A DNA stretch of 64,000 nt from Minisyncoccota bacterium (GTDB lineage: Bacteria > Patescibacteriota > Minisyncoccia > Phycocordibacterales > UBA918). Made by a program: the position numbers and the translations under genes. This document shows, in pieces, positions 2,497-40,103 of this stretch (position 1 is its first letter; each line of letters starts with the position of its first letter). Location of the stretch: the NCBI GenBank assembly GCA_041389005.1, contig JAWKSR010000001.1, positions 38,465-102,464 of the forward strand. Reading direction: 5' to 3'. The notes under the pieces are model-generated. The model was not told the origin of the DNA and did no database searches. It saw only the letters and a list, made by a program, of their open reading frames with translations.

Positions 2497-2505
2497 TCAA
2501 GTTTC

Positions 2506-2552: not shown

Positions 2553-2584
2553 AGTACTAATCTTTAAAGAGCTGATACGGTAAA

Positions 2585-3672: not shown

Positions 3673-3714
3673 CTCTGTCAGGAGAACTCGTGTTAGCATA
3701 TATTCTATAGAGTT

Positions 3715-4140: not shown

Positions 4141-4192
4141 TTGTGTACAGGAACCTCAAGGAGTAAATACAACACGGTACAATACTATTATT

Positions 4193-6076: not shown

Positions 6077-6130
6077 TGTTGGGGAAAAAGCGTGCGTTTT
6101 TGCAAAGGTACTCACGTACAATAATGGTGT

Positions 6131-6595: not shown

Positions 6596-6610
6596 TATAG
6601 TACTAAATAC

Positions 6611-11109: not shown

Positions 11110-11292
11110 AGTACCATTTGACTTAGTAGAAATAAATAGCAGTGCGCAAACTGGAGAGTTGCACTTTTAGCAGATGAGTTAAGTGCCGCGTCAGACAACG
11201 TATTTCATCTTTACTTCAATAATACAAACGCCAACGCTTATGCTTCTACCAGTCCATGCGGTTCACAGGCGGTATGGGCAAACTATGAAGCG

Positions 11293-12348
11293 GTGTATCA
11301 CTTCTCTGATGATACGACTGCGGTTAATAATATTGTCGTTGATCATACTGGAAATGGTCAAGAATTAGATGTGCAAGACGCTGGCATTGCCACCACAACC
11401 GGTGCCATGGGAACCGCTCTTGATCTCACTTCTTCTTCTGGTTACCTCCGGGACGTAGGTAATGACTGGGCGTGGGCTTCGGGTGATGATCATGTGTCTA
11501 CTGGTCTGTATTATCAGACTGCTGCGAGCTCGGAAGCTTTGTGGGAGTGGGGAACCAGTAACAATCCAAACTGGCTTTCTTACATGCCGTGGTATACCAA
11601 CGCCGCAGCGACTGGACGCGGGTATTTGTATTTTGGTTTGAACCAGAATGGAACGTGGTCTCGAGATACAGGTGTATGGCATCACTTCACTACCGTTGCG
11701 CCAGCTACGGTGGGTCAATTACATGGAATTTATGACAACGGTGTGCTTGAACTCAGTAGCACACAAAATACAACGGATCCATCAAACGCCGGCGGTTTAC
11801 AAGTTGGGCGGTACACAACCGGTGGTTCGTACAATGGTATTGTTGATGAACTTCGCTTTGCCAGTAGCGATGCTGCTTTTGATAGCGGATGGATCGCGAC
11901 TGAATATTTGAACCACACTGATCCAACTACGTTTTACGCTACCAGTACAAATATTCTGCCTGGCGGCGATGTTGTAGAAGGTTGGTTCTCAACCAGTTGG
12001 AATAATCGGCAAAAAATAACTATTCCAGCTGGCGGCGCAGTCAGTGATTTCCCAGTCTATGTTGACCTGAGTACACTTGGTGCTGCTTTCTTTAGTGAAG
12101 TTGCTAGCGATGGTAAAGATATACGAGTCGTAGACGCTGCCACTAACACAGAACTCCCGTATGAACTGGTAGCCATCGATACGGGCGCTGAGACTGGCGA
12201 GTTATATTTTAAAACAGATTTAGTCACCACTGAAAATCGTGATTATTACATCTACTTTAATAATCCTGATGCACAAACTTACACTCGGGTGATACCTATG
12301 GTGCACATAATGTGTGGTCAAATAACTTTATTGCGGTGTACCACTTAG
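11293..12348 (+). CDS. giant protein fragment 2: LamG-like jelly roll + DUF2341-like segment
   Basis: Frame is open upstream to ~11170. YEAVYHFSDD, WHHFTTV, VDELRFASSDAAFDSGWIATEY. Then SWNNRQKITIPAG..DFPVYVDLSTLGAAFFSEVASDGKDIRVVD..YYIYFNNPDA. Confidence 0.8.
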   Translation: MYHFSDDTTAVNNIVVDHTGNGQELDVQDAGIATTTGAMGTALDLTSSSGYLRDVGNDWAWASGDDHVSTGLYYQTAASSEALWEWGTSNNPNWLSYMPWYTNAAATGRGYLYFGLNQNGTWSRDTGVWHHFTTVAPATVGQLHGIYDNGVLELSSTQNTTDPSNAGGLQVGRYTTGGSYNGIVDELRFASSDAAFDSGWIATEYLNHTDPTTFYATSTNILPGGDVVEGWFSTSWNNRQKITIPAGGAVSDFPVYVDLSTLGAAFFSEVASDGKDIRVVDAATNTELPYELVAIDTGAETGELYFKTDLVTTENRDYYIYFNNPDAQTYTRVIPMVHIMCGQITLLRCTT

Positions 12349-13421
12349 GCGAAGACGCGAGCGGAACCGGTAATGCAGATGTATATAAAGACTCGACCGC
12401 GAATGGTTTTGATGGTGATGACTACAATACTTCAAACGACAAAACAGGCTTCTTAGGCGCTGGTCAGGAATTTGGTGATGACCAAAATGACTATATTCGT
12501 CTACCGAAAGAGGTGCTAAACGGGCGAACCGACATCACCACTTCATGGTGGCACCAAACGTCAAATGCGGGAGATATGACGATTATCAGTGGTGCTAATT
12601 CCGGGCAAGCCAATGAGTACTGGACGCGCTTTGATAACGATACATTACTGCGTATTTACGCTCAGGGGGGACAGGAGACCACCACTTTAGATGATGGAGC
12701 TACATATAACGATGGACAGTGGCAGCACTATGTGGCAGTTTCAGATGATGCCGCCGATGAAATCAGTGTGTATCGTAATGGAGAGAGTGACACTGAGAAC
12801 CCAGATCCGCAGGCAATTTCTGCGTACACCATAGATACGGGAGGGCTTATTATCGGGCAAGACCAAGATAGCGTTGGAGGTAGCTTCTCTACCGCAGAAA
12901 ACTTTGAAGGTCAGTTGGATGAGTTGCGTTTTGCCAGTACGGTACGTACTGCTGCTTGGGCAGCCGCTGAGTATGCGAACCAAGCTAACCCAGGTGGATT
13001 CTATGCTACGTCAAGTATGGAGACTCTCAACGCTACTGATTTTTCTGAACTTGATTTTTGGGTACAGCACTTCAGCACTTCAACAGACGAAGCGGACATT
13101 TGGGTCCAGGTTGATTATGTCCCCGCCGGTTCACAAACTATTATTTATTTGTATTACGGCAATAGTGCGGCCAGCTCTGCCAGTGATGAACTCGAAACAT
13201 TTACCTACAGCACCACCACCGACTTGTACTATGTAGTTGATGATAGTGCTGCCACTGATATATCAGTAGTGAGTTTGATTGACAGTAATGAGGTACGTAT
13301 TGATGGTGGTGCAGCGGTGGCTCTAGATCAGGGAGAGAGTACATCGTTTACCACCTTTAGTGGGCAATTCCGTCATCAGTGCTCTTGGTCCAATCTCTGC
13401 CACAGTGGCAGATGCTGGTAA
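12312..13421 (+). CDS. giant protein fragment 3: LamG-like domain + DUF2341 C-terminal-like piece
   Basis: VWSNNFIAVYHLGED, QWQHYVAVSDD..ISVYRNG, LDELRFASTVRTAAWAAAEY, IWVQVDYVPAGSQTIIYLYYGNSAA. Confidence 0.8.
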   Translation: MWSNNFIAVYHLGEDASGTGNADVYKDSTANGFDGDDYNTSNDKTGFLGAGQEFGDDQNDYIRLPKEVLNGRTDITTSWWHQTSNAGDMTIISGANSGQANEYWTRFDNDTLLRIYAQGGQETTTLDDGATYNDGQWQHYVAVSDDAADEISVYRNGESDTENPDPQAISAYTIDTGGLIIGQDQDSVGGSFSTAENFEGQLDELRFASTVRTAAWAAAEYANQANPGGFYATSSMETLNATDFSELDFWVQHFSTSTDEADIWVQVDYVPAGSQTIIYLYYGNSAASSASDELETFTYSTTTDLYYVVDDSAATDISVVSLIDSNEVRIDGGAAVALDQGESTSFTTFSGQFRHQCSWSNLCHSGRCW

Positions 13422-14700
13422 CGACAACCACGACTCGCTGGTGCCAATCTCATACGCTACTACTAGTTTTGTTGGGGCTACAGACCGAGATACCAACCGT
13501 TGGTATGTGCATGCTCCTTTTGCGACATCCTCTGTGCAGTCATATATTGGTACGTCCGGATCTGCTAATCAGTCACAGACTGTAAATACTGGTTCAGTCG
13601 TCACTTTTACTGCCAACCCGTCAGACGCTGGCGCTACCAATGACGGCAGTGGTGTTGTTATTGAATCTGATAACCCAGTTCTGGTCTTTCACCGCTCCAC
13701 CTCACCAGGGGACGGTATTGGTCTCTACCCACCTACGATGCGAGATCTGTTTGGTTTTGATTCTAACTACGCCTATGCTGGGGCACTACAGAGTGGTGAT
13801 GACATTGACTACTACTGTAGTAGTGGAGGTAGTGGTACTGAGAGTAGTGTTAATCGCGGAGAAAAGCGTGTGGTTGATGGTTGTAATGCCGCTACTCATA
13901 TGACCGGAGATAGTGTGCGCTTAGTGGCTGGGGCAGTGCCAATTGCTGCTATGCAGCAAGCTGACTCAGATGGTCGAGAAGCGACTGCATTTTTGCCACA
14001 ACATGAATTTGGTACCCGTTATGTGATGACCAATGACGCGCAATATGCAGCGATTGCTTGTTCACCACGGTTTGGGGAAGTGGAAGTGAGTATCTTGGCA
14101 CCAGGTGGTGGCTCAACGGTTACGAGTGGGGTGTGTACACCAGGGGTGGCAACACCAGGAGCACTGCATTTTGGAGATACGTCTGGCAGTTCTGTGGTTT
14201 ATACAGCAGGGCATCAGATTGTGTCAACAAATGGGGTGCCGTTCTATGCAGTGTATGAGGATAACGCAGGAGATACTGACGAAAAGAATATTTTGTCGCC
14301 TGTGCAGGCACGTAAGTATGGAGCGGAAAACTTCAGTGTGGTGTATGGAGAACAAGAACTTACTATTGACGCAGAGTATGAACAACTTTCATATGGGTGG
14401 TATCAAAATATAGATGCAAATACACCCACTAGTACGTGGACACTTGGTAGTGGTGAGTATGTCTCTGAAGCGCAAGCAATTACCGGCGCCGGTGCTGTAG
14501 ATGATGGAGATGTGTTGCGGTTGCGAATGAATATGCTTACCAGTAACGCTACTGGTAGCAAAGATGTCACTGCCTTTAAACTTCAGTATGCGAGTGCTGC
14601 CACAGATCAGTGTAATACGGCGAGTGTTTGGAGTGATGTCGGAGAGTTAAGTAGTACCACAGCTGTGTTCCGGAGGTTACAACAATGTGAGTGTAGGTGA
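13360..14700 (+). CDS. giant protein fragment 4: unassigned beta-rich region + first half of a YCFR-type module
   Basis: 446-aa ORF continuous with fragment 3. Ends with GDVLRLRMNMLTSNATG..FKLQYASAATDQCNTASVWSDVG, the module also seen in 48376-54526. Confidence 0.7.
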   Translation: MGNSVISALGPISATVADAGNDNHDSLVPISYATTSFVGATDRDTNRWYVHAPFATSSVQSYIGTSGSANQSQTVNTGSVVTFTANPSDAGATNDGSGVVIESDNPVLVFHRSTSPGDGIGLYPPTMRDLFGFDSNYAYAGALQSGDDIDYYCSSGGSGTESSVNRGEKRVVDGCNAATHMTGDSVRLVAGAVPIAAMQQADSDGREATAFLPQHEFGTRYVMTNDAQYAAIACSPRFGEVEVSILAPGGGSTVTSGVCTPGVATPGALHFGDTSGSSVVYTAGHQIVSTNGVPFYAVYEDNAGDTDEKNILSPVQARKYGAENFSVVYGEQELTIDAEYEQLSYGWYQNIDANTPTSTWTLGSGEYVSEAQAITGAGAVDDGDVLRLRMNMLTSNATGSKDVTAFKLQYASAATDQCNTASVWSDVGELSSTTAVFRRLQQCECR

Positions 14701-15481
14701 TGGTAATACGCTTGCCACCACTACTTTGGCATCAAGTACCGTTCTGGGAACATATGAAGAGCGAAACCTGAGTAATTTCCCGCCGAATGATCTGTTAGTG
14801 GGTGACATTTCCGAATGGGATTGGGCACTGGAGGCATACGATGTTGGTTTAAATACAAATTATTGTTTCCGTATGGTACGTGCTGATGGTCGTGAATTGG
14901 CTACCTATACTAACTATCCTCAATTAGTAACCGTAGGTCCACCGAATGTGCCAACGTTACTATTGCACTTTGATAATGAACGTACAGCGGTATTCAACTC
15001 TGTACTGGAGTTTACGTCTATCGATATTGCTGGTGATGACATCCACTATGAAGTAGAAATTGATGATGACCGTGACTTCAGCTCTCCAGAAGTCAATAGA
15101 GATTCAGCTGCTAATTTCTTAGAGTTTGAGAATCTAACTAACCCATCTGACAAGGCACCGTTTAACAGTGGTCAACGAATTCGCTTCACATCACCAACTA
15201 CATTAAGTGCCAGTACTACTTATTATTGGCGCGTGCGGGCTAGTGATCCTGACGGCTCTGCGGTTGATAGTGATTGGTCAGCACCGTTTAGTTTTACGAC
15301 CGATGGGTCGGTTACTGTGAGTGAATGGTATCAGACAACTGGACATCAGTTTGGCTCCAACAGTTTGACAAGCATGAGTACGACAAGTGGCGGCGTAAGT
15401 GTTAGTGCTACTGGAGGAGCCGTCACTAGTTCAGCTATTGATTTCAGTGATGCTAGCGTTGGTAACGCCTGGGGTCGTTAG
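14687..15481 (+). CDS. giant protein fragment 5: second half of YCFR-type module + FN3-like unit
   Basis: EWDWALEAY..NYCFRMVRADG..YTNYPQLVT, then TTYYWRVRASDPDGS..WSAPFSFTT. Ends at G-run 15471-15474, and the next frame continues with SLAWNDTETSG. Confidence 0.75.
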   Translation: MSVGDGNTLATTTLASSTVLGTYEERNLSNFPPNDLLVGDISEWDWALEAYDVGLNTNYCFRMVRADGRELATYTNYPQLVTVGPPNVPTLLLHFDNERTAVFNSVLEFTSIDIAGDDIHYEVEIDDDRDFSSPEVNRDSAANFLEFENLTNPSDKAPFNSGQRIRFTSPTTLSASTTYYWRVRASDPDGSAVDSDWSAPFSFTTDGSVTVSEWYQTTGHQFGSNSLTSMSTTSGGVSVSATGGAVTSSAIDFSDASVGNAWGR

Positions 15482-15717
15482 CTTGGAATGATACTGAAAC
15501 CAGCGGAACTATTTACTATCAAATTGAATACAACAATAACGGAACGTGGGAACTCATTCCCGACAGTGATCTTGCGGGCAATAGTGTCGGAGCGACCGTT
15601 TCTCCAGTAAGTCTCATAAACCTTAATACCAACACGTACGATGAGATTCGATTAATTGCAACCGCGAGCGGCACCACGTTATCAATTGAAGATTGGACGC
15701 TCACGTGGGGGCAGCGT

Positions 15718-18700
15718 GTGGAAACACCGACATTGGGTGATCCTTTTGATAACGAAAAAGTGGCCACTACCCAGCCAACCTTTGATTTTGTCTCAGCTGA
15801 TCCACAAAACGATGACTTGGAGTACGAAATTTCTTGGAGCACCGATAATACATTTACCGTCAGCTCTACAACTCGTAATTCAAACGCCAGCGCTGGTTTT
15901 GCTAATAGCAACAACGGTGGAGATACAAATCCATTTACGTCTGGAGACACGATCACCTACACAGTCCAAGCGGGTGACGCGCTTACCAACGGAGAAACTT
16001 ATTGGTGGCGCGTGCGGGCACGTGATCCAGGCGGCGACAATGCTTGGTCACCATGGGCTTTGGCAGATTCATTCACTGTAGATACAAGTGTGACGGTTTC
16101 TACGTGGTATCAAACGACTGCTGAACAATTCGTAGAGGGAGAGCTGACTGGTTTGACGGCATCTACTTCAGGTAGTGTTGAGATTGCCGGGACGATCGGA
16201 GAATATGGAACAGCGACACTCACTGATAATAATTGGACTACAATCAATACTGATAATGAGTATATTGATATGGTAGTGGTGGCGTCTCCCGAGTTTAATG
16301 CCGCCACCTATAATACGAACCGCAACACTCGCGTACGTAACAAAACCGCTGGTTCTTTTGAAATTAAGGTTGATAACTATAATCAAAACATCACCGGCTC
16401 GACCGTCGTTGACTATATTGTGATGGAGGCTGGTACCTGGACACTTGATGACGGTGGAGCTGGAACGCAAGTTATCGCAGGAACGTATGCTGATGTAGAT
16501 GAAGTGCAATCTAACAACTACACACCGGGAATTGGTGTGGTGGTGCCGTTTTCGCCAAGTTTTTCTAGCCCACCAGTTCCTATCTTGACGGTCTCATCAG
16601 ACAACGATACCAGTTGGGTAGGGACTCACGTTGATGGCAACGGCGCCGATCACGATGTTGAGGTCGGCACCGATGAAATGCAAATCGCGCTGGCTCGAAG
16701 TCTTGCCACCGGTGTGCATGATCCTGAGGATATTGATTATGTGGTCTTTGGTGTAGCTGATGGCACCATAAATGGAGCAGCGTTTGAAGCCTTTAATTCA
16801 TCTGACTCAGTAGACGATACGCAAAGTAATGGTGGTCATGCACAAAGTTTCCAGACAGGTTTTGCGACAACGCCGGGTGTGACACTTGTACAAAATAACG
16901 CGGAAGACGGAGGAAATGGTGGTTTTGCCATTAAAGATACCTCTGGAACCAGTAATGCAAGTCAGATTTTCCTAAGTATCTTGGAAGACGGACCATCGCC
17001 AGATCAGCATACCCAGGAAGTAGTATCCATCGTCGCCTTTGAAGCTAACTCAGGTAATCTGACTCGAGCGGGAGCTGAAAGCTTTGTCGGTTCCATTGTC
17101 AGTGAAGATATCATCTTTTCTGATGGAGCTGGTCCTAAGTTTGAATCGTTCTCATGGTCAGACAATGAGCCTGGTGCTAGTGAAATTCTTTACCAGGTAG
17201 AATACAAAGTAGATGACACCACGTATGCATTAGTCCCCGATGGAGTCATTCCTGGTAATAGTAGTGGAACGACCACTTCTCCAATCGATTTGACCGGTAT
17301 CGATATTGAGACGTATCCGATTATTCGTATTGCTGCCAATTTCTCGTGCGTTTCCGGTGATTGCCCAACGCTTGATGACTGGCAAGTGACCTGGAGTGAG
17401 GGGGTAAACATGAGTGGAACGCTGCAGGCCTATGACCGTAGCACCAATATTGCTACAGGTACCATCCGTGTTGCCGTCAACGGCTCGTTGCTACCAAGTA
17501 CGGGGACAGTGGCAGCGGGCTTGTGGACACTTTCTAATGTGACAGCTTTTGCTGGAGACGTAGTGACGGTATGGGTTGATGGTGTCGCCGATAGCGAGGA
17601 AGCCGTTACCGTATTTGTGTACGATGGGGTTGGTGATATGACCGGCGTTTCGTTGTATCAACGTCATCTTACTAATTTGGCAGGAGATAAAGAGACCATT
17701 ACCAATACTCTGTTCGGCTCATATGACAATAGTGTTTCCGGAGACGAGGACATTTTCTTTGACGTAGATGGATTCAATAATTTGACAGTCTGCGCCACGG
17801 GAAGTTGTGAGGATGCCAATCTATATATTGGTGCTGGTCATACCTACATAACAGCAACCAGTACTCCTACCAGTGTCACCACTCACGATTTTGTAAATGA
17901 AGGCACCGTTCTACTCGATGCAAATACCTATTACGTCAGTGGTTCGTGGCTTAACTACGCTACTTCCACTACTGACACATCCACATTGGTAATGACAGCC
18001 AGCACGACCGATGAGCTTATTGTTAGTACTGAATCTCCATTAAACTTCCATCATCTGACGCTTGGCGCTGGTTCAGGGACGAGTACGTATAGCCTTACTG
18101 CACCATTAGATTTATCAGGTAATCTCTCGGTTGTCAGTGGCATGTTTGATAGGGCTTCGTACGATATCCACGTTGCTGGAAACATTAACACTGATGCGCA
18201 AGGGATATGGGTGGGATACGCCACGACTACGTTTGACGGCACTGTGGCTGCCACTTGGAATGACAACCATGCAAGCACTTCGCTACAAAATATCGGTAAC
18301 GTTTTGATTGATGGTACAAGCAAGTCAGTATCTATCACTAGCAATGTCTTAGCCTACGATATCACCATCGGGAGCAATGATACGCTAATCGGTGGTAACG
18401 GAAACCACGTTAATGTCGCCGGCGACTGGACAAATGACGGCAACTTTACTGCTAACACAAGCCAGGTAGTTATTGTGAATGATGATCGTGTGTATCCAGA
18501 TCCTGTCCCTGGTACTGCCGGCTGGTACGCGGATACGAACTTCACTGAACGTATCGCGGTGGTTGTTGATGACAGTGAAGTTCCAGGCGATTTAACTAAT
18601 TATCCGCTGTACATTGATTTGTCTGGACTGGGCACGACGTTTTGGTCAGCTGTACAAAGTGACGGAAGTGATATCAGAGTCACTGCAGGAGATGGGCAGA

Positions 18701-19392
18701 CGGAATTACCAATTGACCTGGTTGAAATAGACCAAACCGCACAAACGGGAGAATTGCATACCTTAGCTACCAGTATCTCAAGTAGTGCCACGACAACGTT
18801 TTATGTATATTTTGGCAACGCGACCGCCACCACTTATGCTGTAAGCGACACGTATGGTGCGCAGAATGTGTGGGCTGATTATGAGGCGGTGTATCACTTC
18901 CATGATGATCCAGCGGTGCTTATCACTGATGAAACTGGGCGCGGACGGAATCTCTTACCAGCCGTGGGTACTGCTGCGACAACCACTGGTCTGATTGGAA
19001 CGGCGCTTGATACTACCGCCAGCAATGTCATGCTGCAAAGTAGTAGTTGGACCTGGCCAGCTGGGTATAATTTGATTTCATCTGGTCTGTATTTCCAATC
19101 CGCCATTGATAATGGAGCCTTGTGGCAGTTCGGTGATGGTAGCGGAAGCAATAATGGTACGTACTTGTCATTTATGCCGTGGTATAGCAATGGTACAAGA
19201 GGGTATCACTATTTTGGTGTTACTTCTGGCGGCGATTATGCTTTCACTCGCGATAATAGTATATGGCATCACTTCACTACTATTGGTCGCGCGGCAAGTG
19301 GTGAAAGTAATCAAATTTACGAAGACAATATCTTGCGCGTGATACCACACCGATGCAAGTTAACGATCCTGCCGCCGGTCCATTGCAGATAG
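15718..19392 (+). CDS. giant protein fragment 6 (1224 aa): FN3-like unit, unassigned domains, beta-helix-like repeats, DUF2341-like + LamG-like cassette
   Basis: Frame is open back to ~15475. GETYWWRVRARDPGG..WSPW. GWYADTNFTERIAVVVDD..YPLYIDLSGLGTTFWSAVQSDGSDIRV..FYVYFGN (18521). YEAVYHFHDD..WHHFTTIGRA. Confidence 0.85.
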   Translation: METPTLGDPFDNEKVATTQPTFDFVSADPQNDDLEYEISWSTDNTFTVSSTTRNSNASAGFANSNNGGDTNPFTSGDTITYTVQAGDALTNGETYWWRVRARDPGGDNAWSPWALADSFTVDTSVTVSTWYQTTAEQFVEGELTGLTASTSGSVEIAGTIGEYGTATLTDNNWTTINTDNEYIDMVVVASPEFNAATYNTNRNTRVRNKTAGSFEIKVDNYNQNITGSTVVDYIVMEAGTWTLDDGGAGTQVIAGTYADVDEVQSNNYTPGIGVVVPFSPSFSSPPVPILTVSSDNDTSWVGTHVDGNGADHDVEVGTDEMQIALARSLATGVHDPEDIDYVVFGVADGTINGAAFEAFNSSDSVDDTQSNGGHAQSFQTGFATTPGVTLVQNNAEDGGNGGFAIKDTSGTSNASQIFLSILEDGPSPDQHTQEVVSIVAFEANSGNLTRAGAESFVGSIVSEDIIFSDGAGPKFESFSWSDNEPGASEILYQVEYKVDDTTYALVPDGVIPGNSSGTTTSPIDLTGIDIETYPIIRIAANFSCVSGDCPTLDDWQVTWSEGVNMSGTLQAYDRSTNIATGTIRVAVNGSLLPSTGTVAAGLWTLSNVTAFAGDVVTVWVDGVADSEEAVTVFVYDGVGDMTGVSLYQRHLTNLAGDKETITNTLFGSYDNSVSGDEDIFFDVDGFNNLTVCATGSCEDANLYIGAGHTYITATSTPTSVTTHDFVNEGTVLLDANTYYVSGSWLNYATSTTDTSTLVMTASTTDELIVSTESPLNFHHLTLGAGSGTSTYSLTAPLDLSGNLSVVSGMFDRASYDIHVAGNINTDAQGIWVGYATTTFDGTVAATWNDNHASTSLQNIGNVLIDGTSKSVSITSNVLAYDITIGSNDTLIGGNGNHVNVAGDWTNDGNFTANTSQVVIVNDDRVYPDPVPGTAGWYADTNFTERIAVVVDDSEVPGDLTNYPLYIDLSGLGTTFWSAVQSDGSDIRVTAGDGQTELPIDLVEIDQTAQTGELHTLATSISSSATTTFYVYFGNATATTYAVSDTYGAQNVWADYEAVYHFHDDPAVLITDETGRGRNLLPAVGTAATTTGLIGTALDTTASNVMLQSSSWTWPAGYNLISSGLYFQSAIDNGALWQFGDGSGSNNGTYLSFMPWYSNGTRGYHYFGVTSGGDYAFTRDNSIWHHFTTIGRAASGESNQIYEDNILRVIPHRCKLTILPPVHCR
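18892..19339 (+). repeat. copy 1 of a 448-bp near-identical direct repeat
   Basis: Compared base by base with 22493-22939. It differs only around 19066-19074. Confidence 0.9.
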
Positions 19393-19775
19393 GTCGGTAT
19401 ACAACTGCTGGCTCTGTTGATGCGGTTTTTTATGATGAGTTGCGATTTGCGACTACAGAACGAAGTACTGATTGGATTGAGGCTGAATATAGTAACCATC
19501 GCACTCCACACACCTTTTACGCGACCACTACTGCACAAAGCTACCAGGCACCATATATCATTGATGCTGCGACCCATAACATCACAACCGGAGGTTCTGC
19601 TTTCTTTGATATCACGTTCAATGATGCTACTACCTCTCCGGTGTTTGTTGACTCTACGCTGGTAGTGAATGGTGACTTTGTCATTGCTACTGGTACTGTG
19701 GCGATGCCAACGACTAGGACTACTATTAAAGGATCATTTACCAACAATGGTTTCTTTATGCACAATAACTCTTGA
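19353..19775 (+). CDS. giant protein fragment 7: end of LamG-like domain
   Basis: PLQIGRYTTAGSVDAVFYDELRFATTERSTDWIEAEYSNH completes the LamG-like domain begun in fragment 6. Break at ~19340. Confidence 0.75.
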   Translation: MQVNDPAAGPLQIGRYTTAGSVDAVFYDELRFATTERSTDWIEAEYSNHRTPHTFYATTTAQSYQAPYIIDAATHNITTGGSAFFDITFNDATTSPVFVDSTLVVNGDFVIATGTVAMPTTRTTIKGSFTNNGFFMHNNS

Positions 19776-22485
19776 GTTTAAGTTTACGGGTGCGGGTAGT
19801 GAAACCATCACACTCAATGGGACAGGTTTTCTTAACTACCTCTACGATGTGACGTTTGATGGTTCTGGCAGCTGGACTTTTACTGACAGTCATGCGACAG
19901 CAACGGGCGCAGTGGTTATTGATAATGGAGCTGTTACGTTCCCGAGCAGTGTTTTAACTATTGGTGATACGTTACAAACCGATGGTTCATTTAACAGCAA
20001 CGGTGGCACTGTGCGATTCATCTCTGCTGAGTCAGAAACTATTACAACTAATGGATCTAGCTTCACAAATGTTGTGTTCGGTGATGGATCGCTGGGCTGG
20101 TACGGAGAAGATTGGACAGACAGAATAGTTTTGACTGTTGGTCCAGACGTAGTCGATGCTGATTTATTTGACTATCCGTTGTACGTTGACTTGTCTCTGC
20201 TTGGCAGTTCGTTCTGGAGTACGGTTGAGCCAACGGGGGCGGATATTCGGATTACGAGTGCTGATGGTGAAACCGAATTGCCTTTTGAAATCGTATCTAT
20301 TGATTACACAGGACAGACAGGAGAACTCCATTTCCTCACCCCAACTATTTCAGCGACTGCCAGTACTACGTTTTACATATATGTTGGTAACGCAGATGCT
20401 GAGTCTTACGCCGCTAGTGATACGTATGGCTCAGAAAATGTATGGACAGGTTATGAAGCGGTGTATCACTTTGAAGATGAACCGGGTAGTGCAGCCGATG
20501 CTACAGCCAATAATCGCGATATGGTGGCGACCGTTGGTACTCCAGCCACTACCACTGGTCAAATTGGTAAAGCCCTTGATACTACTGCAAGCAGTGTCAT
20601 GCTCGAGGATAATGACTGGACGTGGGTGTCAGGAGATAATCTATGGTCCTCAGGTCTCTACTTCCAGTCAGCTACTGATAACGGAGCGCTTTGGCAGTTC
20701 GGAGACGGTAGCGGTAGTAACAACGGCACCTACTTGGCATTTTTGCCAGATTATGACGGCAATGGCGGTCGCCACTTCTTCGGCATCACAACAGGAGGTG
20801 ACTATGACTTTACGCGGGATAATGGTAGCTGGCATCATTTCACAACCATTGGTAGGGCTACTGATGGTGAGCAAAATGAGATTTATGAAGACGATGTGTT
20901 ACGTGATGCGGTTACTCAGATTAGTTCATCACAGAACCCAACCAACACCGGACTCAAGATTGGGCGCTACCAGACCAATACCTACATGGATGTCGATGTT
21001 GATGAACTTCGCTTCGCAACGACAACACCATCACGCGCTTGGATTTCATTTGAGTATACAAACTTCTTGAATCCAGCTGCTACCTACAGTGTCGATAGTG
21101 AAAGTTTCTCCGGTTCGGTAACAACGTACACGCTTGATGAAGCAAACGTGAATGTTGCCGGGGACCTCATCGTTTCCGGAGTTCGTCTGGTAGCTCCTAC
21201 CGATACTTTGAGCATCGGTGGATCAGCACTCAATACATCAGGTGTATTCGATCCGAATAATGCTACTACTACCTTTAATAGTACTGATACGGGAGAAACC
21301 TTTGATTTTGGTGACGTGACATTTTATAACTTGTCATTTAATGGAGTTGGTGGTGGCTGGACCGTCAGTACAACGAGTGTGGCAAATAATCTTAGTCTGG
21401 TGACTGGGGCGAGCTTTGCGATGAGTCCAAACACCACTCTTTCAGTAGGGGGTCGCTTCAGCAACACATTTACCGCCACCTCCACAACCTGGACAGATAG
21501 CACATTGGTGTTGACAGGGGGAGATTATACCGTGACAGACCGTCTTGATAACGGGGACGACTATGCCACGCTTGTAGTCGGCAACGACACAGATATTGTG
21601 TTGTGGAATTCTACGATTAGCACCTCCACAGTGCGTGATACGTCTTCAATTTACATGCCCGACTTCGGTGGAGTGGACGGACACCTACGTATTTATGGTG
21701 ATTATGAACGAACCAGTGGAAACGAATATTGGAGTTATGCTACTGACTTTGATGGAACTGACTTGACTGGCGGAAGTGAGCGAGCGGTCACTGTTACTAT
21801 GAAAAATGGTAGCGCTGTGACAATCGGTACCAGTTCAGCATTATATATGCTCGGTTCGGTAGGTGCTTCTACCACCGTACAAGTTGATTTTGGTATTTAT
21901 GATCTTGAGTTACGTAATGCCACGTTAGCCGCAGCGTATGCTGAACTGAGTGGAGGCGGCGCGTCAGGACTCGAACTGCTCGATAACACCACCGTTTCTA
22001 CTTTCAATAACGTACAGTTTGCTGTAGCAGCGGGACGAACCGGTTTGACATTGGATGCGGCAACAATGAATGCGCAACCTTCATCAGAGTGGACCAACAT
22101 CGATTTTGCCTCAACAACTGGTACCAACATTTACCAGGCTGATTGGACTGGACAGATGGTAGTCACCGTCGCAGCGAGTGCAGTTGATGAGTCATTATCT
22201 GATTTTCCTGTTTATGTAGATCTTTCACGCCTTGGCGCAGACTTCTGGAGTGCGGTTAATAGCAATGGAAGTGATATTCGTATCACTACTGCTGGGGGAC
22301 GGGAGTTGCCAATTGATCTAGTGGAAATTGATGTAAGTACAGAGACCGGGGAATTACACTTCTTAGCCGATGAGCTGTCTTCGGTAAGTGACACAGCATT
22401 CTATCTACACTATGGAAATGGTAGCGCCGCGTCTTACGCTGATAGTGATGGAGTATGGAACGCAAGCAGTTTGGAATGCGTATGA
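19669..22485 (+). CDS. giant protein fragment 8 (938 aa): DUF2341-like + LamG-like cassette, ~1-kb beta-helix-like block, next DUF2341-like segment
   Basis: The correct frame begins ~19765. GWYGEDWTDRIVLTVG..YPLYVDLSLLGSSFWSTVEPTGADIRI (20095). VDELRFATTTPSRAWISFEY. EYWSYATDFDGTDLTGG. YQADWTGQMVVTV..FPVYVDLSRLGADFWSAVNSNGSDIRI (22132). Confidence 0.85.
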   Translation: MVTLSLLLVLWRCQRLGLLLKDHLPTMVSLCTITLEFKFTGAGSETITLNGTGFLNYLYDVTFDGSGSWTFTDSHATATGAVVIDNGAVTFPSSVLTIGDTLQTDGSFNSNGGTVRFISAESETITTNGSSFTNVVFGDGSLGWYGEDWTDRIVLTVGPDVVDADLFDYPLYVDLSLLGSSFWSTVEPTGADIRITSADGETELPFEIVSIDYTGQTGELHFLTPTISATASTTFYIYVGNADAESYAASDTYGSENVWTGYEAVYHFEDEPGSAADATANNRDMVATVGTPATTTGQIGKALDTTASSVMLEDNDWTWVSGDNLWSSGLYFQSATDNGALWQFGDGSGSNNGTYLAFLPDYDGNGGRHFFGITTGGDYDFTRDNGSWHHFTTIGRATDGEQNEIYEDDVLRDAVTQISSSQNPTNTGLKIGRYQTNTYMDVDVDELRFATTTPSRAWISFEYTNFLNPAATYSVDSESFSGSVTTYTLDEANVNVAGDLIVSGVRLVAPTDTLSIGGSALNTSGVFDPNNATTTFNSTDTGETFDFGDVTFYNLSFNGVGGGWTVSTTSVANNLSLVTGASFAMSPNTTLSVGGRFSNTFTATSTTWTDSTLVLTGGDYTVTDRLDNGDDYATLVVGNDTDIVLWNSTISTSTVRDTSSIYMPDFGGVDGHLRIYGDYERTSGNEYWSYATDFDGTDLTGGSERAVTVTMKNGSAVTIGTSSALYMLGSVGASTTVQVDFGIYDLELRNATLAAAYAELSGGGASGLELLDNTTVSTFNNVQFAVAAGRTGLTLDAATMNAQPSSEWTNIDFASTTGTNIYQADWTGQMVVTVAASAVDESLSDFPVYVDLSRLGADFWSAVNSNGSDIRITTAGGRELPIDLVEIDVSTETGELHFLADELSSVSDTAFYLHYGNGSAASYADSDGVWNASSLECV

Positions 22486-22669
22486 AGCGTTGTATCACTT
22501 CCATGATGATCCAGCGGTGCTTATCACTGATGAAACTGGGCGCGGACGGAATCTCTTACCAGCCGTGGGTACTGCTGCGACAACCACTGGTCTGATTGGA
22601 ACGGCGCTTGATACTACCGCCAGCAATGTCATGCTGCAAAGTAGTAGTTGGACCTGGCCAGCTGGGTAA
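22388..22669 (+). CDS. giant protein fragment 9: start of LamG-like domain (copy 2 of the 448-bp repeat)
   Basis: YEALYHFHDDPAVLITDETGRGRNLLPAVG... matches 18892-19070 nucleotide for nucleotide. Ends at a TAA created by a 1-nt deletion. Confidence 0.7.
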   Translation: MTQHSIYTMEMVAPRLTLIVMEYGTQAVWNAYEALYHFHDDPAVLITDETGRGRNLLPAVGTAATTTGLIGTALDTTASNVMLQSSSWTWPAG

Positions 22670-22939
22670 ATTGGATTTCATCTGGTCTGTATTTCCAATC
22701 CGCCATTGATAATGGAGCCTTGTGGCAGTTCGGTGATGGTAGCGGAAGCAATAATGGTACGTACTTGTCATTTATGCCGTGGTATAGCAATGGTACAAGA
22801 GGGTATCACTATTTTGGTGTTACTTCTGGCGGCGATTATGCTTTCACTCGCGATAATAGTATATGGCATCACTTCACTACTATTGGTCGCGCGGCAAGTG
22901 GTGAAAGTAATCAAATTTACGAAGACAATATCTTGCGCG
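22493..22939 (+). repeat. copy 2 of the 448-bp direct repeat (1-nt deletion + 1 substitution)
   Basis: GGGTAAATTGGATT here versus GGGTATAATTTGATT in copy 1; otherwise identical as read. Confidence 0.9.
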
Positions 22940-23466
22940 ACAGTGTGACGCAATTAGGTTCATCAAGAAAATCCAACCAACACCGGACTCAAGATTGGAC
23001 GCTACCCGAACTGGTACCTATATGGATATTGAAGTGGATGAATTGCGTTTCTCTTCTACTCCAACTGATGCGGCGAGCTGCTGAATTTACAAACTTAACC
23101 GATCAAGCGAACTTCATCAGTACCAGTACAACGCCAACTGAGCGATTCAACGTGGCAGTGGTTGGTGCACCAACTACGTATTGGCGATTCTCCCAGGGTA
23201 ATGACACCCTCTATGGTGAATCGTTTGACAGCGATGATGGTGACCCAGGATCAGTACAATGGGATGATAGTAGCTTCAGCATTACTATCTCAGGTGTGGT
23301 GTATGCAGATGATGGAGTAACGCCGATGAGCGCACCAGTATGTAATGGCTCTACTGATGTGGTAAAGATCGCTTTAGACAATGTCGTTTCTTATGTCACT
23401 CCTTGTGATCCGCGCGATGGTACCTATGAAGTACCGGCGTTGCCTATACCGGTGAACCTAAAATAA
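22648..23466 (+). CDS. giant protein fragment 10: rest of LamG-like domain + start of a repeated module
   Basis: SSGLYFQSAIDNGALWQFGDGSGSNNGTY..WHHFTTIGRA. About 22960-23090 is read out of frame; the expected NPTNTGLKIGRY..DIEVDELRFSS lies in another frame. Then TYWRFSQGND..VQWDDSSF, parallel to 26880-27000. Confidence 0.7.
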   Translation: MDLASWVNWISSGLYFQSAIDNGALWQFGDGSGSNNGTYLSFMPWYSNGTRGYHYFGVTSGGDYAFTRDNSIWHHFTTIGRAASGESNQIYEDNILRDSVTQLGSSRKSNQHRTQDWTLPELVPIWILKWMNCVSLLLQLMRRAAEFTNLTDQANFISTSTTPTERFNVAVVGAPTTYWRFSQGNDTLYGESFDSDDGDPGSVQWDDSSFSITISGVVYADDGVTPMSAPVCNGSTDVVKIALDNVVSYVTPCDPRDGTYEVPALPIPVNLK

Positions 23467-24666
23467 CAACCTACATTGATAGTAATGCGTCTGAAACGCA
23501 AGTTAATGTCAGTCTATATGATCAGACAACGGGGACGGGTACAGTTTCCGGGAGCACTATCACTGTATCTCGTCCAAATGTAGTTGATGGTTCAGTACTG
23601 GTTGCCATAATCGGTAAGGACGATGATCCGGCCATTTCAGGAGCGGCAGGGTGGACAGAGATAGATTCCCTTGGAAACACAACTGGAGATGATCTTTATA
23701 CAACCGCTTGGTACAAAGTGGTTGCCGATGCCAGTACTGAACCGGCCAGCTATGATTTCGGGGGCGACAATGGTGAGGGGTATAGCTATTGGGTAGGGTC
23801 ACTTCTTAACGTTGACACCAGTACGCCAGTTGACGTTGCTTCTAGTTGGACGAAGTACCAAAATGACCAAAACCCTACTGCTGCTGAAGGACGACTGTCA
23901 CCAATGGTGCATTGGTCTTAGCAAGTTGGTATACCTTCAGGGACGGAGACCTGACCCTGCCGTTCTCTGACTGGACAAATGTTGCACCGAATATCACTGG
24001 TCCGGAAGGCAATGGATTGTCAGTAAGTACTAAGTTGCAGGCAACAGCGGGTGCTACAGGTGACGCAATAGCCTTAACCTTGAAATAAACTACGAATCCC
24101 ATGCCGCCCAATTTGCTATTCGACCAGCTAGCTCACCGACCGCTACCAGTTCGGTCACTGCTGTTGTAGTGACGCAAACACCGCTGGGTAGCAGCGGAGC
24201 TGCATATGAAACCATTACCCAAAGAGATCAAGCGGTTGGTGACGGTACGGTAGGTGCCGGAGCTGATATTGCAGTCACCCGTCCAGTAGTTGAAAACAGT
24301 GACACACTGGTGGCTATTATTGGAAAGGAAGATACCTATGATATAACCCCACCATCAGGATGGGTAAAGATTGACGATTATAGCTCCGTAACCGGTTCTG
24401 TTATGCACAGTAGTATCTGGTATAAAGTTGTTACAAATGCGGGTAGCGAACCAGCCAGTTACAACTTCACCAGCAACGACACAAGCGTTGAAGAGTATGC
24501 CTACTGGATAGGATCGTTCAGTGGCGTAGATACTAGTAGTCCGTTGATGTTACTACAACATGGAGCAATGTGCAGAACACTTCCTCACCAGTGCTCAGTA
24601 TCACTACCAATACTCCTGGTGCATATGTCTTGGCGGCGTGGAATATCATGTATGACAACGCAGTGA
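23463..24666 (+). CDS. giant protein fragment group 11: tandem pair of an unassigned ~190-aa domain (several frame breaks)
   Basis: Copy 1: ITVSRPNVVDGSVLVAIIGKDDDPAISGAAGWTEID..WYKVVADASTEPASYDF..VDTSTPVDV. Copy 2: IAVTRPVVENSDTLVAIIGKEDTYDITPPSGWVKID..WYKVVTNAGSEPASYNF..VDTSSP. Confidence 0.55.
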
Positions 24667-24767
24667 CCATGCCGGGTGGTAGCTGGCAAACACTCGCTGA
24701 GGATGTATAACAACAGCCGGGCTATTAACGTTGCCGGACAGCGGCCGCTGCCGGGGCTACAGGTCTA

Positions 24768-25412
24768 GTGACAGTCACCGATGCCAGTACCGATGACGTA
24801 AACGTTGGACAATTTGCCTTGCGTCCAGCACCGATTTCTGTTGCCAGCGGTGTGTATGATATGGACTTGTATCAGGACCGAGTAATTGTACGTCATGAAG
24901 ACGTGACCCCAATGGATATTGCGGGATTGGTGCACTTTGACAATACTGTTGATACCGACATTCCGTTTATAGCTGCTACCGGTACGCCATGGACACTCGA
25001 TGTGTTGTCAGGGAGCGGACTGATGGTATGGGATGCGATACGTTTGTGCCAAACGGGGAAGTTGATCTGCAAGGCACCGGCACTGATACAAGATGGCTCA
25101 CCGCTACTTGGTACTGGTGCTGTCTACACTGCCAGCACCTATCCGTTAACTATCGGCGGTTCTTTCTTTGCTCGTAGCGGTGCTACATACACACCAGCAA
25201 CCAGTCAAGTGACCTTCGCTGCCACGACAAGCGGTCAGTCAATTGGCGCCATTGGTGGTTCTACTATTACATTTAACAGTCTCGTATTTGACGGCGGAGG
25301 AGGGGAATGGAATATCCAAACTCCGATTGTGTCTCAGGCAGGCATTACTGTAGCCACTGGTACGGTTCGGGGTAGCATCAGTGACAATCGAAAATGGTTC
25401 ATTTGCTGGTAA
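24768..25412 (+). CDS. giant protein fragment 12
   Basis: MDLYQDRVIVRHEDVTPMDIAGLVHFDNTVDTDIPFIAATG parallels MDIYEDHVIVRHESGASQTIADMAVWDSSDGADIPFTAIDAG at ~27235. Confidence 0.65.
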   Translation: MTVTDASTDDVNVGQFALRPAPISVASGVYDMDLYQDRVIVRHEDVTPMDIAGLVHFDNTVDTDIPFIAATGTPWTLDVLSGSGLMVWDAIRLCQTGKLICKAPALIQDGSPLLGTGAVYTASTYPLTIGGSFFARSGATYTPATSQVTFAATTSGQSIGAIGGSTITFNSLVFDGGGGEWNIQTPIVSQAGITVATGTVRGSISDNRKWFICW

Positions 25413-26106
25413 TGGTTTGGTTGATATGACCGGTGGTACGGTTGTTATTGAACAGACAAATACCTTGGGTGGGGTGCAACCATGGTTGTTTAACAATCTA
25501 ACACTGGGTGACGGCAGTAGTGCGAGGATTACTACGCCAAGTGGCACTGCCACCACTACTGTCCGAGGAGTACTTACTATTGCCGCCGGACACTTCTTAG
25601 ATGCCGGCAGTTCACACTGGACGCTTTCCGGTACGGGTAATCCATTTATAGAGACCGGAACCTTCCTTGAAGACACAAGTTCGTTTACCTATAGTGGTAA
25701 TGGAGCAAACATTCGGCGCACCGCGTATTACAATCTAGCGGTTGATACCACAACTGGTACCGCATATGCCACCGCCCCAACAACTGGGTTGCAGGTTCTC
25801 AATAATCTTGCGGTTGGTAAAAATGGTACTTCAACACTTAACGTTAATACAAATGATCCGTTGTTAGCAGTGGGTGGTGACGTATATATTGGAAATCTCG
25901 GTACGCTATTGGCAAGTGATACCAATCTCATTGAGGTGTATGGTGGTTGGAATAATGACGGAGTCTTTACTGCCAACGGCAGCTTAGTTGAGTTCTATCA
26001 AGTATCAGGTAGCAGTACGATTGCGGCAGGTAACAGTAGTTTTGCGGATGTCTCATTCCTCGGCAATGCTGACTTTACTATTAGAACATGCTACGGCAAC
26101 CGGTAA
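25381..26106 (+). CDS. giant protein fragment 13: beta-helix-like repeat block
   Basis: Repeats of the type NLTLGDGSSARITTPSGTATTTVRGVLTIAAG, YNLAVDTTTGTAYATAPTTGLQVLNNLAVG, GGDVYIGNLGTLLAS. Confidence 0.65.
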   Translation: MTIENGSFAGNGLVDMTGGTVVIEQTNTLGGVQPWLFNNLTLGDGSSARITTPSGTATTTVRGVLTIAAGHFLDAGSSHWTLSGTGNPFIETGTFLEDTSSFTYSGNGANIRRTAYYNLAVDTTTGTAYATAPTTGLQVLNNLAVGKNGTSTLNVNTNDPLLAVGGDVYIGNLGTLLASDTNLIEVYGGWNNDGVFTANGSLVEFYQVSGSSTIAAGNSSFADVSFLGNADFTIRTCYGNR

Positions 26107-26516
26107 CGTTTTGCTTGATGGTGAGAATGACTTCACGCTTGCCAGTGGTTTGAGTCTGGCAGTGGGTGGCACGTTCACTAACCGTATGGGTGGCGCCCAG
26201 ACTACATGGAGTGACACAACCCTCTATCTTTTCAGCGGTACTGATTACACCGTCAGTAATAAATCAATCACTGACACCTACGGTACGTTGCTCGTTGGCG
26301 CTCAACACACAGCCACGCTTCTGGAATTCATCAGCAGCCACTACCACGGTACGTACCGGCGGCTCAGTCTACTCAATGGATCATGCTAATGTGACGGGAG
26401 ATCTCTATATCTTTGGTGATTATGTAAACAAACGTTATGACGATGCGTGGAGCTACGCCAATGATTTTGATGGTGCTGTGCTTGGCACAGCACGTGCTGC
26501 CCAACGTGTACATTGA
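25988..26516 (+). CDS. giant protein fragment group 14 (two overlapping ORFs)
   Basis: GGAQTTWSDTTLYLFSGTDYTV.. and FWNSSAATTTVRTGGSVYSMDHANVTGDLYIFGDYVNKRYDDAWSYANDFDGAVLG parallel 28480-28770. Confidence 0.6.
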
Positions 26517-26742
26517 GGACAATGGTTCGGTGTTATACCAAGGCGGTTCCTTGACTGTGCTGGGTAGCAGTACCGCTTCCACTACAGTTGTTTCTCAGAA
26601 CGGGGTACCTACGCACTCACCATTGGGGGTACTACTACCGCTTTGATGAATCATTGTGTTACGTGATACTGACATTAATGGACTGACATTTAGTGGCAGT
26701 CCGACCGTAACGACATCTCGTATGGTGACTTTGTAGTAGCGA

Positions 26743-27627
26743 TTGATGGCGGTTCAGCTATTACAGTCGGTGGCACAGCGATCAATGCCAATCAAGCTCA
26801 AAATTATATCAAACAACCGCTTCGCCACTACCACCGCTATCAGTGCCAGTAACGTTACTGCCACTGGCACCAGTGTCAGCTCATGGCGGTTTGTAAATGC
26901 GCCGGGTAATCTTTCCGGAGAAGCTAAGGATAATGATCCGGGTGGAGACCCAGGTTATATTGTGTGGGAAGACTCAGCTGCCATTATCAATATTTCCGGA
27001 AATGTATATCAAAACGATGCTGCCACCGCCTCTCTGGTTTGTAACGGGGTGACGAATAATATTTTCCTTATGGATGGTCTGACGTTTGCGAGCACGAGTT
27101 GTGCCGCAGTAACAGGTGCCTACACGTTCTCTGGAATCGCGTATGGAGCGGGAGACACAGTCACAGTGTATATAGATGGCGCGCTGGTGCAAGGAGCCAC
27201 GGTCTCAAAGGACCCAGTCTCATCAATTGGGAACATGGATATCTATGAGGATCATGTCATTGTGCGACATGAAAGTGGAGCATCGCAGACGATAGCAGAC
27301 ATGGCTGTGTGGGATAGTTCTGACGGCGCAGACATTCCATTTACCGCCATTGATGCTGGTACTGATGGTCTCATTGTCCCTGCTGATGTAAAACTATTGG
27401 TTTGGACCGATAAAACATTTGCACCTGGGGGTGATGTTACTGTGGCTGGCGGTGGTGGTGGTAGCGCCTTTGACGGAACCTTAGAGATACTAGATGACGC
27501 AACATTCACAGCCGTGGATGGTGAATCTCACAGTATTGGCGGTAGCTTACTAACAGGTAGTGGAGCAGTATTTAATGCGGCCTCAGTACTACCACCTTTA
27601 CTACTACCGGTGCGAGTCGCACCATAG
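26743..27627 (+). CDS. giant protein fragment 15
   Basis: SSWRFVNAPGNLSGEAKDNDPGGDPGYIVWEDSAAIINISGNVY..CNGVTNN..TGAYTFSGIAYGAGDTVTVYIDG repeats the 23160-23480 module. Confidence 0.7.
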   Translation: MMAVQLLQSVAQRSMPIKLKIISNNRFATTTAISASNVTATGTSVSSWRFVNAPGNLSGEAKDNDPGGDPGYIVWEDSAAIINISGNVYQNDAATASLVCNGVTNNIFLMDGLTFASTSCAAVTGAYTFSGIAYGAGDTVTVYIDGALVQGATVSKDPVSSIGNMDIYEDHVIVRHESGASQTIADMAVWDSSDGADIPFTAIDAGTDGLIVPADVKLLVWTDKTFAPGGDVTVAGGGGGSAFDGTLEILDDATFTAVDGESHSIGGSLLTGSGAVFNAASVLPPLLLPVRVAP

Positions 27628-27629
27628 AT

Positions 27630-28579
27630 ATCAATGCCGCCAACCTATACAACGTTTCATTCACTGGTAGCGGTAGCTGGACTATTACTGACGCGACATT
27701 TACCGCGCTTGGTGATGTGACTATTACAAATGGAACAGTAACACTACCAACCGGGACGGCAACATTTGGTGGTGACTTTATCAATAGTGGTGGGTCATTC
27801 ACTGGCGCGGACACAACCACTTTGTTCAATGGTACGGGAGCTGGTCAAGTGGTTACCTTTGGAGGTTCAGATCTTGCCACTACTACATTTGATGGAGTTG
27901 GCGGCAGTTGGACTATTACCGATACCGGCGCCACTACCACTGGGTCATTCACTGTTAGTAATGGAGCAGTCACTCTGCCACCGGGCGTGTTGGCAGTAGC
28001 GAATGACTTTGTTATTGAAGATACTATTTCACATAATGGCGGCACCATCAGACTTTATGACCCAAGTGCTGGGCACGCTACTAACCCTATCAGGTAATGA
28101 TCTTAACTCTGTCACGATAGCCGGAGCTGCAGACGCTGTTGTGACTGACACCAGTGCGGCATTGTTGGGAGATCTTACAATTGTCACTGGTTCCTTTACT
28201 GCTGCGAGTGGTACGCTTTCCGTTGGCGGTTCGTTTGATGCTACTGGCGGATTATTTAATCACAGTTCGGAACTATACTCTTTAATTCGGCAGACACTGG
28301 TGAAGTGGTGAATGCTGGTAACAATGATTTCTATAACGTTGTATTTAATAACGCAGGCGGTGGTTGGACACTTACCAGCGCCACGAGCACTCAAAATTTC
28401 ACTCTCACTGCCGCCAGTAGCTTTACCCTTAATACCGGTGAGGTCTTGTCAGTTGAAGGGGTGTTCATGAACGCTGTGGGGGTGCAAACACTACCTGGAG
28501 CGGGACGGCGCTTAAATTACTCTCCGGTACAGATTATTCAGTAAACACAAAGGCAACTGGTGGTGATGTATACGATACG
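27630..28579 (+). CDS. giant protein fragment group 16: beta-helix-like repeat block (ORFs 27717-28097, 28003-28311, 28305-28544)
   Basis: Repeated units: NLYNVSFTGSGSWTITDATFTALGDVTITNGTVTLPTG.., TTTFDGVGGSWTITDTGATTTGSFTVSNGAVTLPPG.., FYNVVFNNAGGGWTLTSATSTQNFTLTAAS. Confidence 0.65.
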
Positions 28580-31573: not shown

Positions 31574-31591
31574 CGAGCCTGGCGGCTCGTT
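31572..31591 (+). terminator. 8-bp stem-loop overlapping the stop codon of the giant gene
   Basis: AACGAGCC-TGGC-GGCTCGTT. No strong U-run follows. Confidence 0.45.
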
Positions 31592-31595
31592 ATCT

Positions 31596-31687
31596 CCGGT
31601 CCTGCCGAGAGGCAGGAATTCCCGATGCCGTCTCGGCGAGGGAATAGGTGGGACCCAGTATTAAACGAAGATACTCTTGCCCAGAAG
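31596..31687 (+). repeat. intergenic repeat element, copy A (structured; two hairpins)
   Basis: About 90% identical by manual alignment to 40104-40195. Contains CCTGCC-GAGA-GGCAGG and ATTCCC..GCCG-TCT-CGGC..GGGAAT. Its 3' part, AAACGAAG.TACTCTTGCCCAGA.GA..TTCT.CCTCACA, recurs at 57858-57900. Confidence 0.75.
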
Positions 31688-31833
31688 ATTTTCTACCTCA
31701 CAGAATGTGCCTTTTTCTATATTTAATGAAAGGCACCCCAAGCTTAACTCGCTTATTTCACCGCAGACTCCTTCACCTGTTTGGGATAACCAACCCACAT
31801 CACTAAAACCTGAATGATAAAATATTAATAAAT

Positions 31834-34637: not shown

Positions 34638-34675
34638 GCTACAAAAGCTAATTAATGTATAGATAATATAAAAGT

Positions 34676-40100: not shown

Positions 40101-40103
40101 TAA

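Follow-up and report, generated by a model that had tools for sequence, protein, structure and literature searches.

A probable recent gene conversion between two lectin-like cassettes of a giant surface-protein gene in a Patescibacteria genome

A near-identical direct repeat lies inside a giant modular surface-protein gene on a 64-kb contig stretch (the whole stretch analysed, hereafter the window) from the metagenome-assembled genome (MAG) of a Paceibacterota bacterium of the candidate phyla radiation (CPR, or Patescibacteria), and our analysis favours a real and recent gene conversion as its origin. In the model that we consider probable, the core of one internal cassette, D, was copied over its counterpart in another cassette, B, of the same gene, and the frameshifts that break up the gene in this contig are consensus errors. 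Other bacterial surface-protein genes provide well-known cases of such conversion. The attachment of ultrasmall CPR bacteria to their hosts is attributed to giant surface proteins, whose evolution is poorly known because they are hard to assemble. The gene in the window has a length of about 7,770–7,800 codons, is read in this contig as about 30 frame segments, and combines cassettes in which a DUF2341 domain is followed by a LamG-like domain, four of them labelled A to D, with a long C-terminal part. DUF2341 is repeated along the gene, with PF10102 matches in the segments at 11140, 12270, 15466, 19669 (two stretches) and 28457.

Direct string comparison of the two copies (450 nt in copy 1 and 449 nt in copy 2, 3.6 kb apart) left a single differing spot. 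A first identical block covers 178 nt (18890–19067 and 22491–22668) and a second one 266 nt (19074–19339 and 22674–22939); between them, copy 1 reads TAATTT (19068–19073) and copy 2 reads AATTG (22669–22673), which amounts to a 1-nt deletion plus a T>G change. The original prediction, made from the sequence alone, had described a near-identical direct repeat with precisely this one difference, and string comparison, MAFFT alignment and a repeat search all agreed with it, the tract beginning 2 nt further to the left than it had been placed. As had also been claimed, the deletion in copy 2 creates a stop codon that ends an ORF (open reading frame), and we located this TAA at 22667–22669, where it ends a frame-2 segment and frame 2 returns to frame 1.

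The sharpness of the tract was evident in an alignment of the four cassettes. Cassettes B and D were identical at 446 of 448 tract columns, against 53% identity in the left flank (385 columns) and 43% in the right flank (227 columns), and all other cassette pairs showed 49–65% nucleotide identity in the tract columns. At the tract edges the sliding-window identity fell from 100% to less than 65% within ~60 nt, and the comparison showed the loss of identity in both copies directly after ATCTTGCGCG that had been reported. The module lying between the copies, cassette C, had been called clearly diverged, and it was indeed only 65% identical at the nucleotide level and 67% at the protein level in the tract columns. 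Because the repeat search found no other long near-identical repeat within the window, chance can be excluded as the source of the repeat.

We compared the locus with relatives, namely L002 (a Nomurabacteria MAG contig, JACKGI010000002.1) and the MAG contigs L003 and L005; the closest relatives in any collection searched were about 60% identical. The L002 orthologue stays in a single open frame for at least 6,464 codons, and in tblastn its protein was colinear with the window over 13357–31570. In L003 and L005 the frame stays open across the entire locus, upstream cassettes included, and the gene in the window therefore spans the full interval given in Table 1. What looks like a separate upstream gene at 8254–13421 is part of the same giant ORF, L003 and L005 being open across the junction. 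Thus, the gene is a single ORF in L002, L003 and L005, and is interrupted by at least 29 frameshifts in this contig.

The relatives revealed an orthology mosaic in cassette B. Its left flank was most similar to cassette B orthologues (61% identity to L002 q2107–2226, 58% to L003 6473–6832 and 58% to L005 10010–10369), and so was its right flank (57% to L002 q2394–2530, 56% to L003 7274–7726 and 49% to L005 10823–11281), which remains in frame 3 as far as a second shift at about 19774. The tract protein between these flanks was 67% (L002) and 61% (L003) identical to the cassette D core, versus only 42% (L002), 36% (L003) and 32% (L005) to the cassette B cores. Around copy 2 the flanks are D-type, the left one being 59% identical to the orthologue at L002 q3311–3417 and 58% identical at L003 10040–10369. 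With B-type flanks enclosing a D-type tract, copy 2 appears to be native and copy 1 to have been patched from copy 2. The exchange is non-reciprocal, in that the donor keeps its D identity, the recipient core has lost its B identity, and the B flanks have stayed B-type. In L003 the replaced segment abuts both flank matches exactly (6832/6833 and 7273/7274), so that register is kept at the protein level, although 2 extra nt at 19339–19341, which may be an assembly error, break the frame. Moreover, L002 and L003 share the order of cassettes B, C and D with the window, which makes the presence of both cassettes an ancestral layout and speaks against their duplication during assembly. Among the explanations put forward in the original prediction, gene conversion is thus favoured by the orthologues and acquires a direction, from copy 2 to copy 1; duplication of a cassette is ruled out, since the flanks of copy 1 and the tract itself have their orthologues in different cassettes; and an assembly artefact is judged unlikely, as discussed below.

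These observations support a model in which ~450 bp of the cassette D LamG-like core would have been copied over the corresponding part of cassette B, non-reciprocally, in homologous register and within one gene. The event would have occurred in the cell and not in the assembler. Cassette B would now encode a chimeric lectin-like domain with a D-type front and a B-type back, and the protein would end up with two near-identical putative ligand-binding cores 3.6 kb apart in the gene, a change that might have a functional effect.

Structure prediction on the intact cassette C placed the tract within this domain. The AlphaFold2 model of cassette C (predicted local distance difference test, pLDDT, 81; predicted template modelling score, pTM, 0.83) retrieved ConA-like lectin jelly rolls in Foldseek with a probability of 1.00, its neighbours including AbnA domain 4, a trans-sialidase lectin domain, TeNT/BoNT Hc-N and calreticulin, and a PDB profile match to 4qvs agreed with the jelly-roll assignment. 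The module is accordingly modelled as a ConA-like/LamG-like fold. The 149 residues of the tract align to residues 125–271 of the 360-residue model and cover about the first two-thirds of the LamG-like jelly roll, and the tract edges coincide with two conserved domain motifs, EAVYHF and ILRD, where the cassettes are still alike. The second domain of the present cassettes thus has the same predicted fold as LamG/ConA-like lectin domains, although cassettes B, C and D differ from these in falling below the Pfam LamG thresholds; a Laminin_G_3 (PF13385) match with E = 6e-20 was obtained in the sister cassette at 12270–13418.

Frameshift-aware alignment to L002 revealed at least 29 frame changes between 13357 and 28478, very unevenly distributed: 25 fall in 22451–28478, four in the preceding 9 kb, while the last 3.1 kb are free of them. 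Upstream there are at least four further shifts, at about 11055 (+1), 11190 (−1), 12300 and 13355, and an apparent in-frame TGA at 11107 is merely an out-of-frame reading between two compensating shifts. When the 29 shifts were corrected in 13357–31570, no stop remained in 6,057 codons, and identity to L002 was 53.5% in the dense stretch versus 55.5% elsewhere. Decay would be expected to add nonsense codons and to erode conservation, and as neither is seen we read the frameshifts as errors, most likely indel-type consensus errors of the kind found in long-read or hybrid assemblies. Homopolymer-type errors as in 454, Ion Torrent or classic Oxford Nanopore (ONT) reads were rejected as their source, the sites not being clearly enriched in homopolymers (runs of at least 4 at 6 of the 29 sites versus about 13% expected). 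Reassignment of a stop codon was likewise rejected, for the segments end in TAA, TAG and TGA alike and change frame. The TAA in copy 2, the fragmentation of the gene and, probably, the 2-nt shift at the copy 1 junction would in that case be indel consensus errors and not properties of the organism.

Genes of ordinary kinds are split as well. A MacB_PCD/FtsX permease (34667–35881) is read in frames 2, 3 and 2, and an AI-2E transporter (58872–59841) has profile positions 2–147 in frame 3 and 153–310 in frame 1; a pilin-like paralogue (40591–41749) shows a 1-nt change of offset against its sister gene (1333–2496). The contig as a whole is therefore of limited base-level quality. The original prediction had tied the TAA and the frame change at 19340 specifically to the repeat; this did not hold, both being members of a gene-wide series of at least 29 frameshifts, with other genes split too. 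Copy 2 itself lies within the dense stretch, where about two indels per 450 nt are expected, and contains one; given this local error density, an error probably accounts for the difference between the copies and, with it, for the TAA, and the copies may in truth be identical.

Assembly of the central part of the gene seems to be difficult, perhaps owing to variation between strains. An orthologue on an independent contig from the Joint Genome Institute (JGI), L001, carries 18 shifts at 718–6697, near the contig end, 17 of them as if from a single-base deletion and with no in-frame stops, and these affect the same part of the gene as the 25 shifts of the window (L002 residues about 3100–5450). 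The window's 25 shifts are a mix of insertions and deletions. The C-terminal 1,000–1,400 codons are clean in both. In the NCBI annotation the pieces of the giant gene appear as about a dozen separate proteins, and two of the ORF products of the window correspond to NCBI proteins MEZ4200040.1 and MEZ4200048.1 (locus tag R3B69_), which are recorded as MAG proteins of a Candidatus Paceibacterota bacterium on a 166,940-bp contig. The division of the locus into so many annotated proteins almost certainly results from the indel errors.

Of the shifts noted earlier, the one at the copy 1 junction is alone in looking connected with a repeat edge. The claim that copy 1 changes frame where identity ends was sustained by frameshift-aware alignment to the intact relative, which put the change at 19341. 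The junction contains 2 extra nt, which move frame 1 to frame 3, and the cassette B orthologues read ...ERD, ...LRD and ...LRE at this point. This is one of several observations that weigh against a conversion in the cell. Homologous gene conversion should give an in-frame junction, and the frame break at the copy 1 edge counts against it; with four to five shifts per 9 kb, the chance of a shift exactly at the right edge of copy 1 is roughly 1–2%. The left edge of copy 2, moreover, lies 40 nt downstream of the point where the dense stretch sets in, and the contig can be shown to be prone to error. Neither reads nor a second assembly of this organism were found; exact-protein look-ups of the window ORFs and of the NCBI protein returned no independent copy of it, and an exact 29-mer from the tract had no match in the JGI metagenomes. 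Finally, no inter-cassette repeat above 81% identity was present in L001–L005.

Alternatively, the patch might have been made during assembly or polishing, the true core of cassette B differing moderately or strongly from that of cassette D, the D consensus having been placed in cassette B by the assembler, a gap-filler or a short-read polisher, and a scar having been left at the junction. This explanation, which we regard as unlikely, draws on the many indel errors in several genes of the contig, on the frameshift exactly at 19339–19341 together with the start of the error-dense stretch so close to copy 2, and on the fact that we found no independent assembly confirming the junctions. The replacement, however, is in homologous register within 2 nt. 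Judging from the relatives, in which B-type cores share only 32–42% protein identity with the D-type tract, reads of one copy could neither be mapped onto the other nor be used to polish it. The path of a native cassette B in the assembly graph would be unbranched, leaving an assembler without reason to substitute it, and long reads, which the indel-type errors suggest were used, easily span a 450-nt repeat with copies 3.6 kb apart. We see no plausible mechanism by which an assembler would have produced the patch. Errors of long-read or hybrid assembly resemble what is seen here in being clustered, indel-only and located at repeat edges, and the same region is broken in the long-read-like L001, but such errors alter single bases and fail to account for 450 nt being exchanged in register between cores with ~40% protein identity. 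The shift at the edge and the start of the dense stretch look like responses of the assembly to the edges of the repeat, and scars at the edges of the segment between the copies are equally expected when an assembler meets a genuine two-copy repeat. The simplest reading of the edges may be that the assembler or polisher stumbled there over a genuine two-copy repeat; a real but imprecise junction is also conceivable.

Two other explanations accept the repeat as real. If both the conversion and the frameshifts were real, the giant gene would be a decaying pseudogene that tolerated an imprecise patch, a case that the many frame breaks along the gene, the breakage of the L001 orthologue in the same region and the annotation of the pieces as separate proteins would support. 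We consider it improbable, because 29 frameshifts accompanied by not one nonsense codon in 6,057 corrected codons are unlike neutral decay, the dense stretch is no less conserved, and the breaks are concentrated in one part of the gene (25 within 6 kb, with the final 3.1 kb unbroken), even though the first break would already have lifted constraint from everything downstream. The splitting of ordinary genes elsewhere in the window also speaks against decay, and the shifts of L001, with 17 of 18 of the single-base-deletion type near a contig end, bear a typical long-read error signature. A diversity-generating retroelement (DGR) with its template and variable repeats (TR/VR), or a pair of mobile-element copies, comes to mind on finding a near-identical direct repeat inside a CPR surface-protein gene, and CPR bacteria are a group rich in DGRs. 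Yet the sole substitution is T>G on the coding strand, accompanied by one deletion in 449 nt, with no adenine-specific mismatches; the 450-nt tract far exceeds the usual VR/TR pairs; and no reverse transcriptase was detected among the ORFs scanned with Pfam and NCBIfam, a scan that was not exhaustive for the window. Both copies are, moreover, homologous coding cores of cassettes that are present in the relatives. The mismatch pattern and the coding homology effectively rule out a DGR or a mobile element, to which we assign hardly any probability. On balance, a recent conversion from cassette D to cassette B, recorded in an error-prone contig, accounts best for the data, and the coordinates of the features concerned are collected in Table 1.

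Table 1. Features of the giant gene and of the repeat pair in the window
Feature	Coordinates	Strand	Basis
Giant modular surface-protein gene, DUF2341 plus LamG-like cassettes A–D, long C-terminal part	8254..31573	+	Pfam, tblastn, open relatives
Cassette B native left flank: DUF2341 domain and linker	18532..18889	+	Closest to cassette B orthologues
Copy 1 of the tract, probable recipient: D-type LamG-like core in cassette B (149 aa, YHFHDD...YEDNILR)	18890..19339	+	Orthologue identities
Copy 1 right junction, CGCG-TG-ATACC versus in-frame CGC GAT ACC (R-D-T)	19339..19341	+	Frameshift-aware alignment
Cassette B native right flank: last third of LamG-like domain and linker	19341..19796	+	Cassette B orthologues
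Cassette C, intact, diverged: DUF2341 plus LamG-like jelly roll	20092..21171	+	Pfam DUF2341, structure model
Native DUF2341 left flank of cassette D, with a +1 insertion at ~22451	22111..22490	+	Cassette D orthologue match
Frameshift-dense stretch, 25 shifts in 6 kb, about 1 per 240 nt	22451..28478	+	Frameshift-aware alignment to L002
Copy 2 of the tract, probable donor: native cassette D core	22491..22939	+	Flanks and core match cassette D orthologues
Sole difference between the copies	22667..22674	+	String comparison, frameshift-aware alignment

The remainder of the window contains smaller repeats and further surface-protein genes. A conserved intergenic element of ~100 nt occurs at 31589–31695 and 40097–40203 with 86% identity and the core CCTGCCGAGAGGCAGGAATTC exact in both copies; each copy directly follows the stop and hairpin of a large surface-protein gene and is predicted to form two stem-loops. 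The element had no Rfam match, and no further copy of it was found in the window or in the first seven loci retrieved. Inside ORF 49660–51051, which has no family assignment, a 75-nt direct repeat (49831–49905 and 50884–50958, 97% identity, 1,053 nt apart) may represent another small conversion or duplication. The paralogous genes 1333–2496 and 40591–41749 are 72% identical at the nucleotide level over about 600 nt, and the former has a weak match, below cut-off, to the C-terminal domain of the CPR Pam-pilus pilin (NF058581). Genes for WxL-interacting, cohesin, dockerin and Big-domain proteins surround these pilin paralogues, marking the window as a surface-protein island. A megablast search of 15–24 kb gave no match to phage records that would point to a phage origin, a promoter and terminator scan of 18–24 kb yielded nothing exceeding shuffled expectation, and Rfam detected no RNA family and no tRNA in the window.

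We also scanned the wider family, comprising 79 distant homologous loci from JGI metagenomes, for similar patches. In L014, an 88% identical patch of 388 nt (5397–5781 versus 6426–6813) covers the DUF2341 part of adjacent cassettes between flanks of about 50% identity, and in L043 a 95% identical patch extends over 522 nt (3855–4373 versus 5648–6166), again with about 50% in the flanks. Several other distant loci contain patches of 87–97% elsewhere in the locus. Cassette number varies as well: L002 has an extra DUF2341/LamG cassette (residues 1575–1944) that is absent from the window, L003 and L005, whereas cassette D is missing in L005 (between 13615 and 13631). The differences in cassette number, together with the L014 patch, imply that recombination between cassettes occurs in this family.

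Giant Patescibacteria proteins (>4000 aa) that carry FhaB and/or DUF2341 domains and lack full-length homologues have been described in the Patescibacterium danicum paper, in which domain reshuffling through homologous recombination was speculated for them (PMC11809585). They come from the same phylum and are of the same DUF2341-containing, giant, predicted surface or adhesion type as the present gene, orthology between the two not being established. Whereas reshuffling was inferred there from missing homologues, the present locus offers a tract with a donor, a recipient and boundaries, and the mapped tract is thus a concrete example of the recombination between internal cassettes of a giant Patescibacteria gene that had been speculated (PMC11809585). 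It is tempting, though quite unlikely in our estimation, to go further and regard cassette-to-cassette conversion within the expressed gene as a regular way in which CPR bacteria remodel the lectin-like cores of their giant DUF2341/LamG adhesins, generating surface variation or tuning specificity without silent donors and leaving the central part of the gene variable between strains. If this were true, it would explain why long-read consensus fails at the strain-variable central part in independent assemblies, and it would lend concrete support to the recombination hypothesis (PMC11809585). The practical lesson from the locus is that its stops and frame changes should not be read as biology.

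Gene conversion between surface-protein cassettes occurs in Neisseria pilE/pilS, Borrelia vlsE and Mycoplasma genitalium mgpB/MgPar. The giant gene differs from these systems in that donor and recipient lie in the same ORF, with no silent donor loci. It also differs from the pilE/pilS type in that one event is seen here, with no sign that the process is programmed or of high frequency or that mosaics exist in the population. In its form, however, the event that we propose resembles them, as a few hundred base pairs would have been copied non-reciprocally from one paralogous cassette to another that has diverged from it, with conserved motifs on either side of the tract and an exposed domain that probably binds a ligand as the target.

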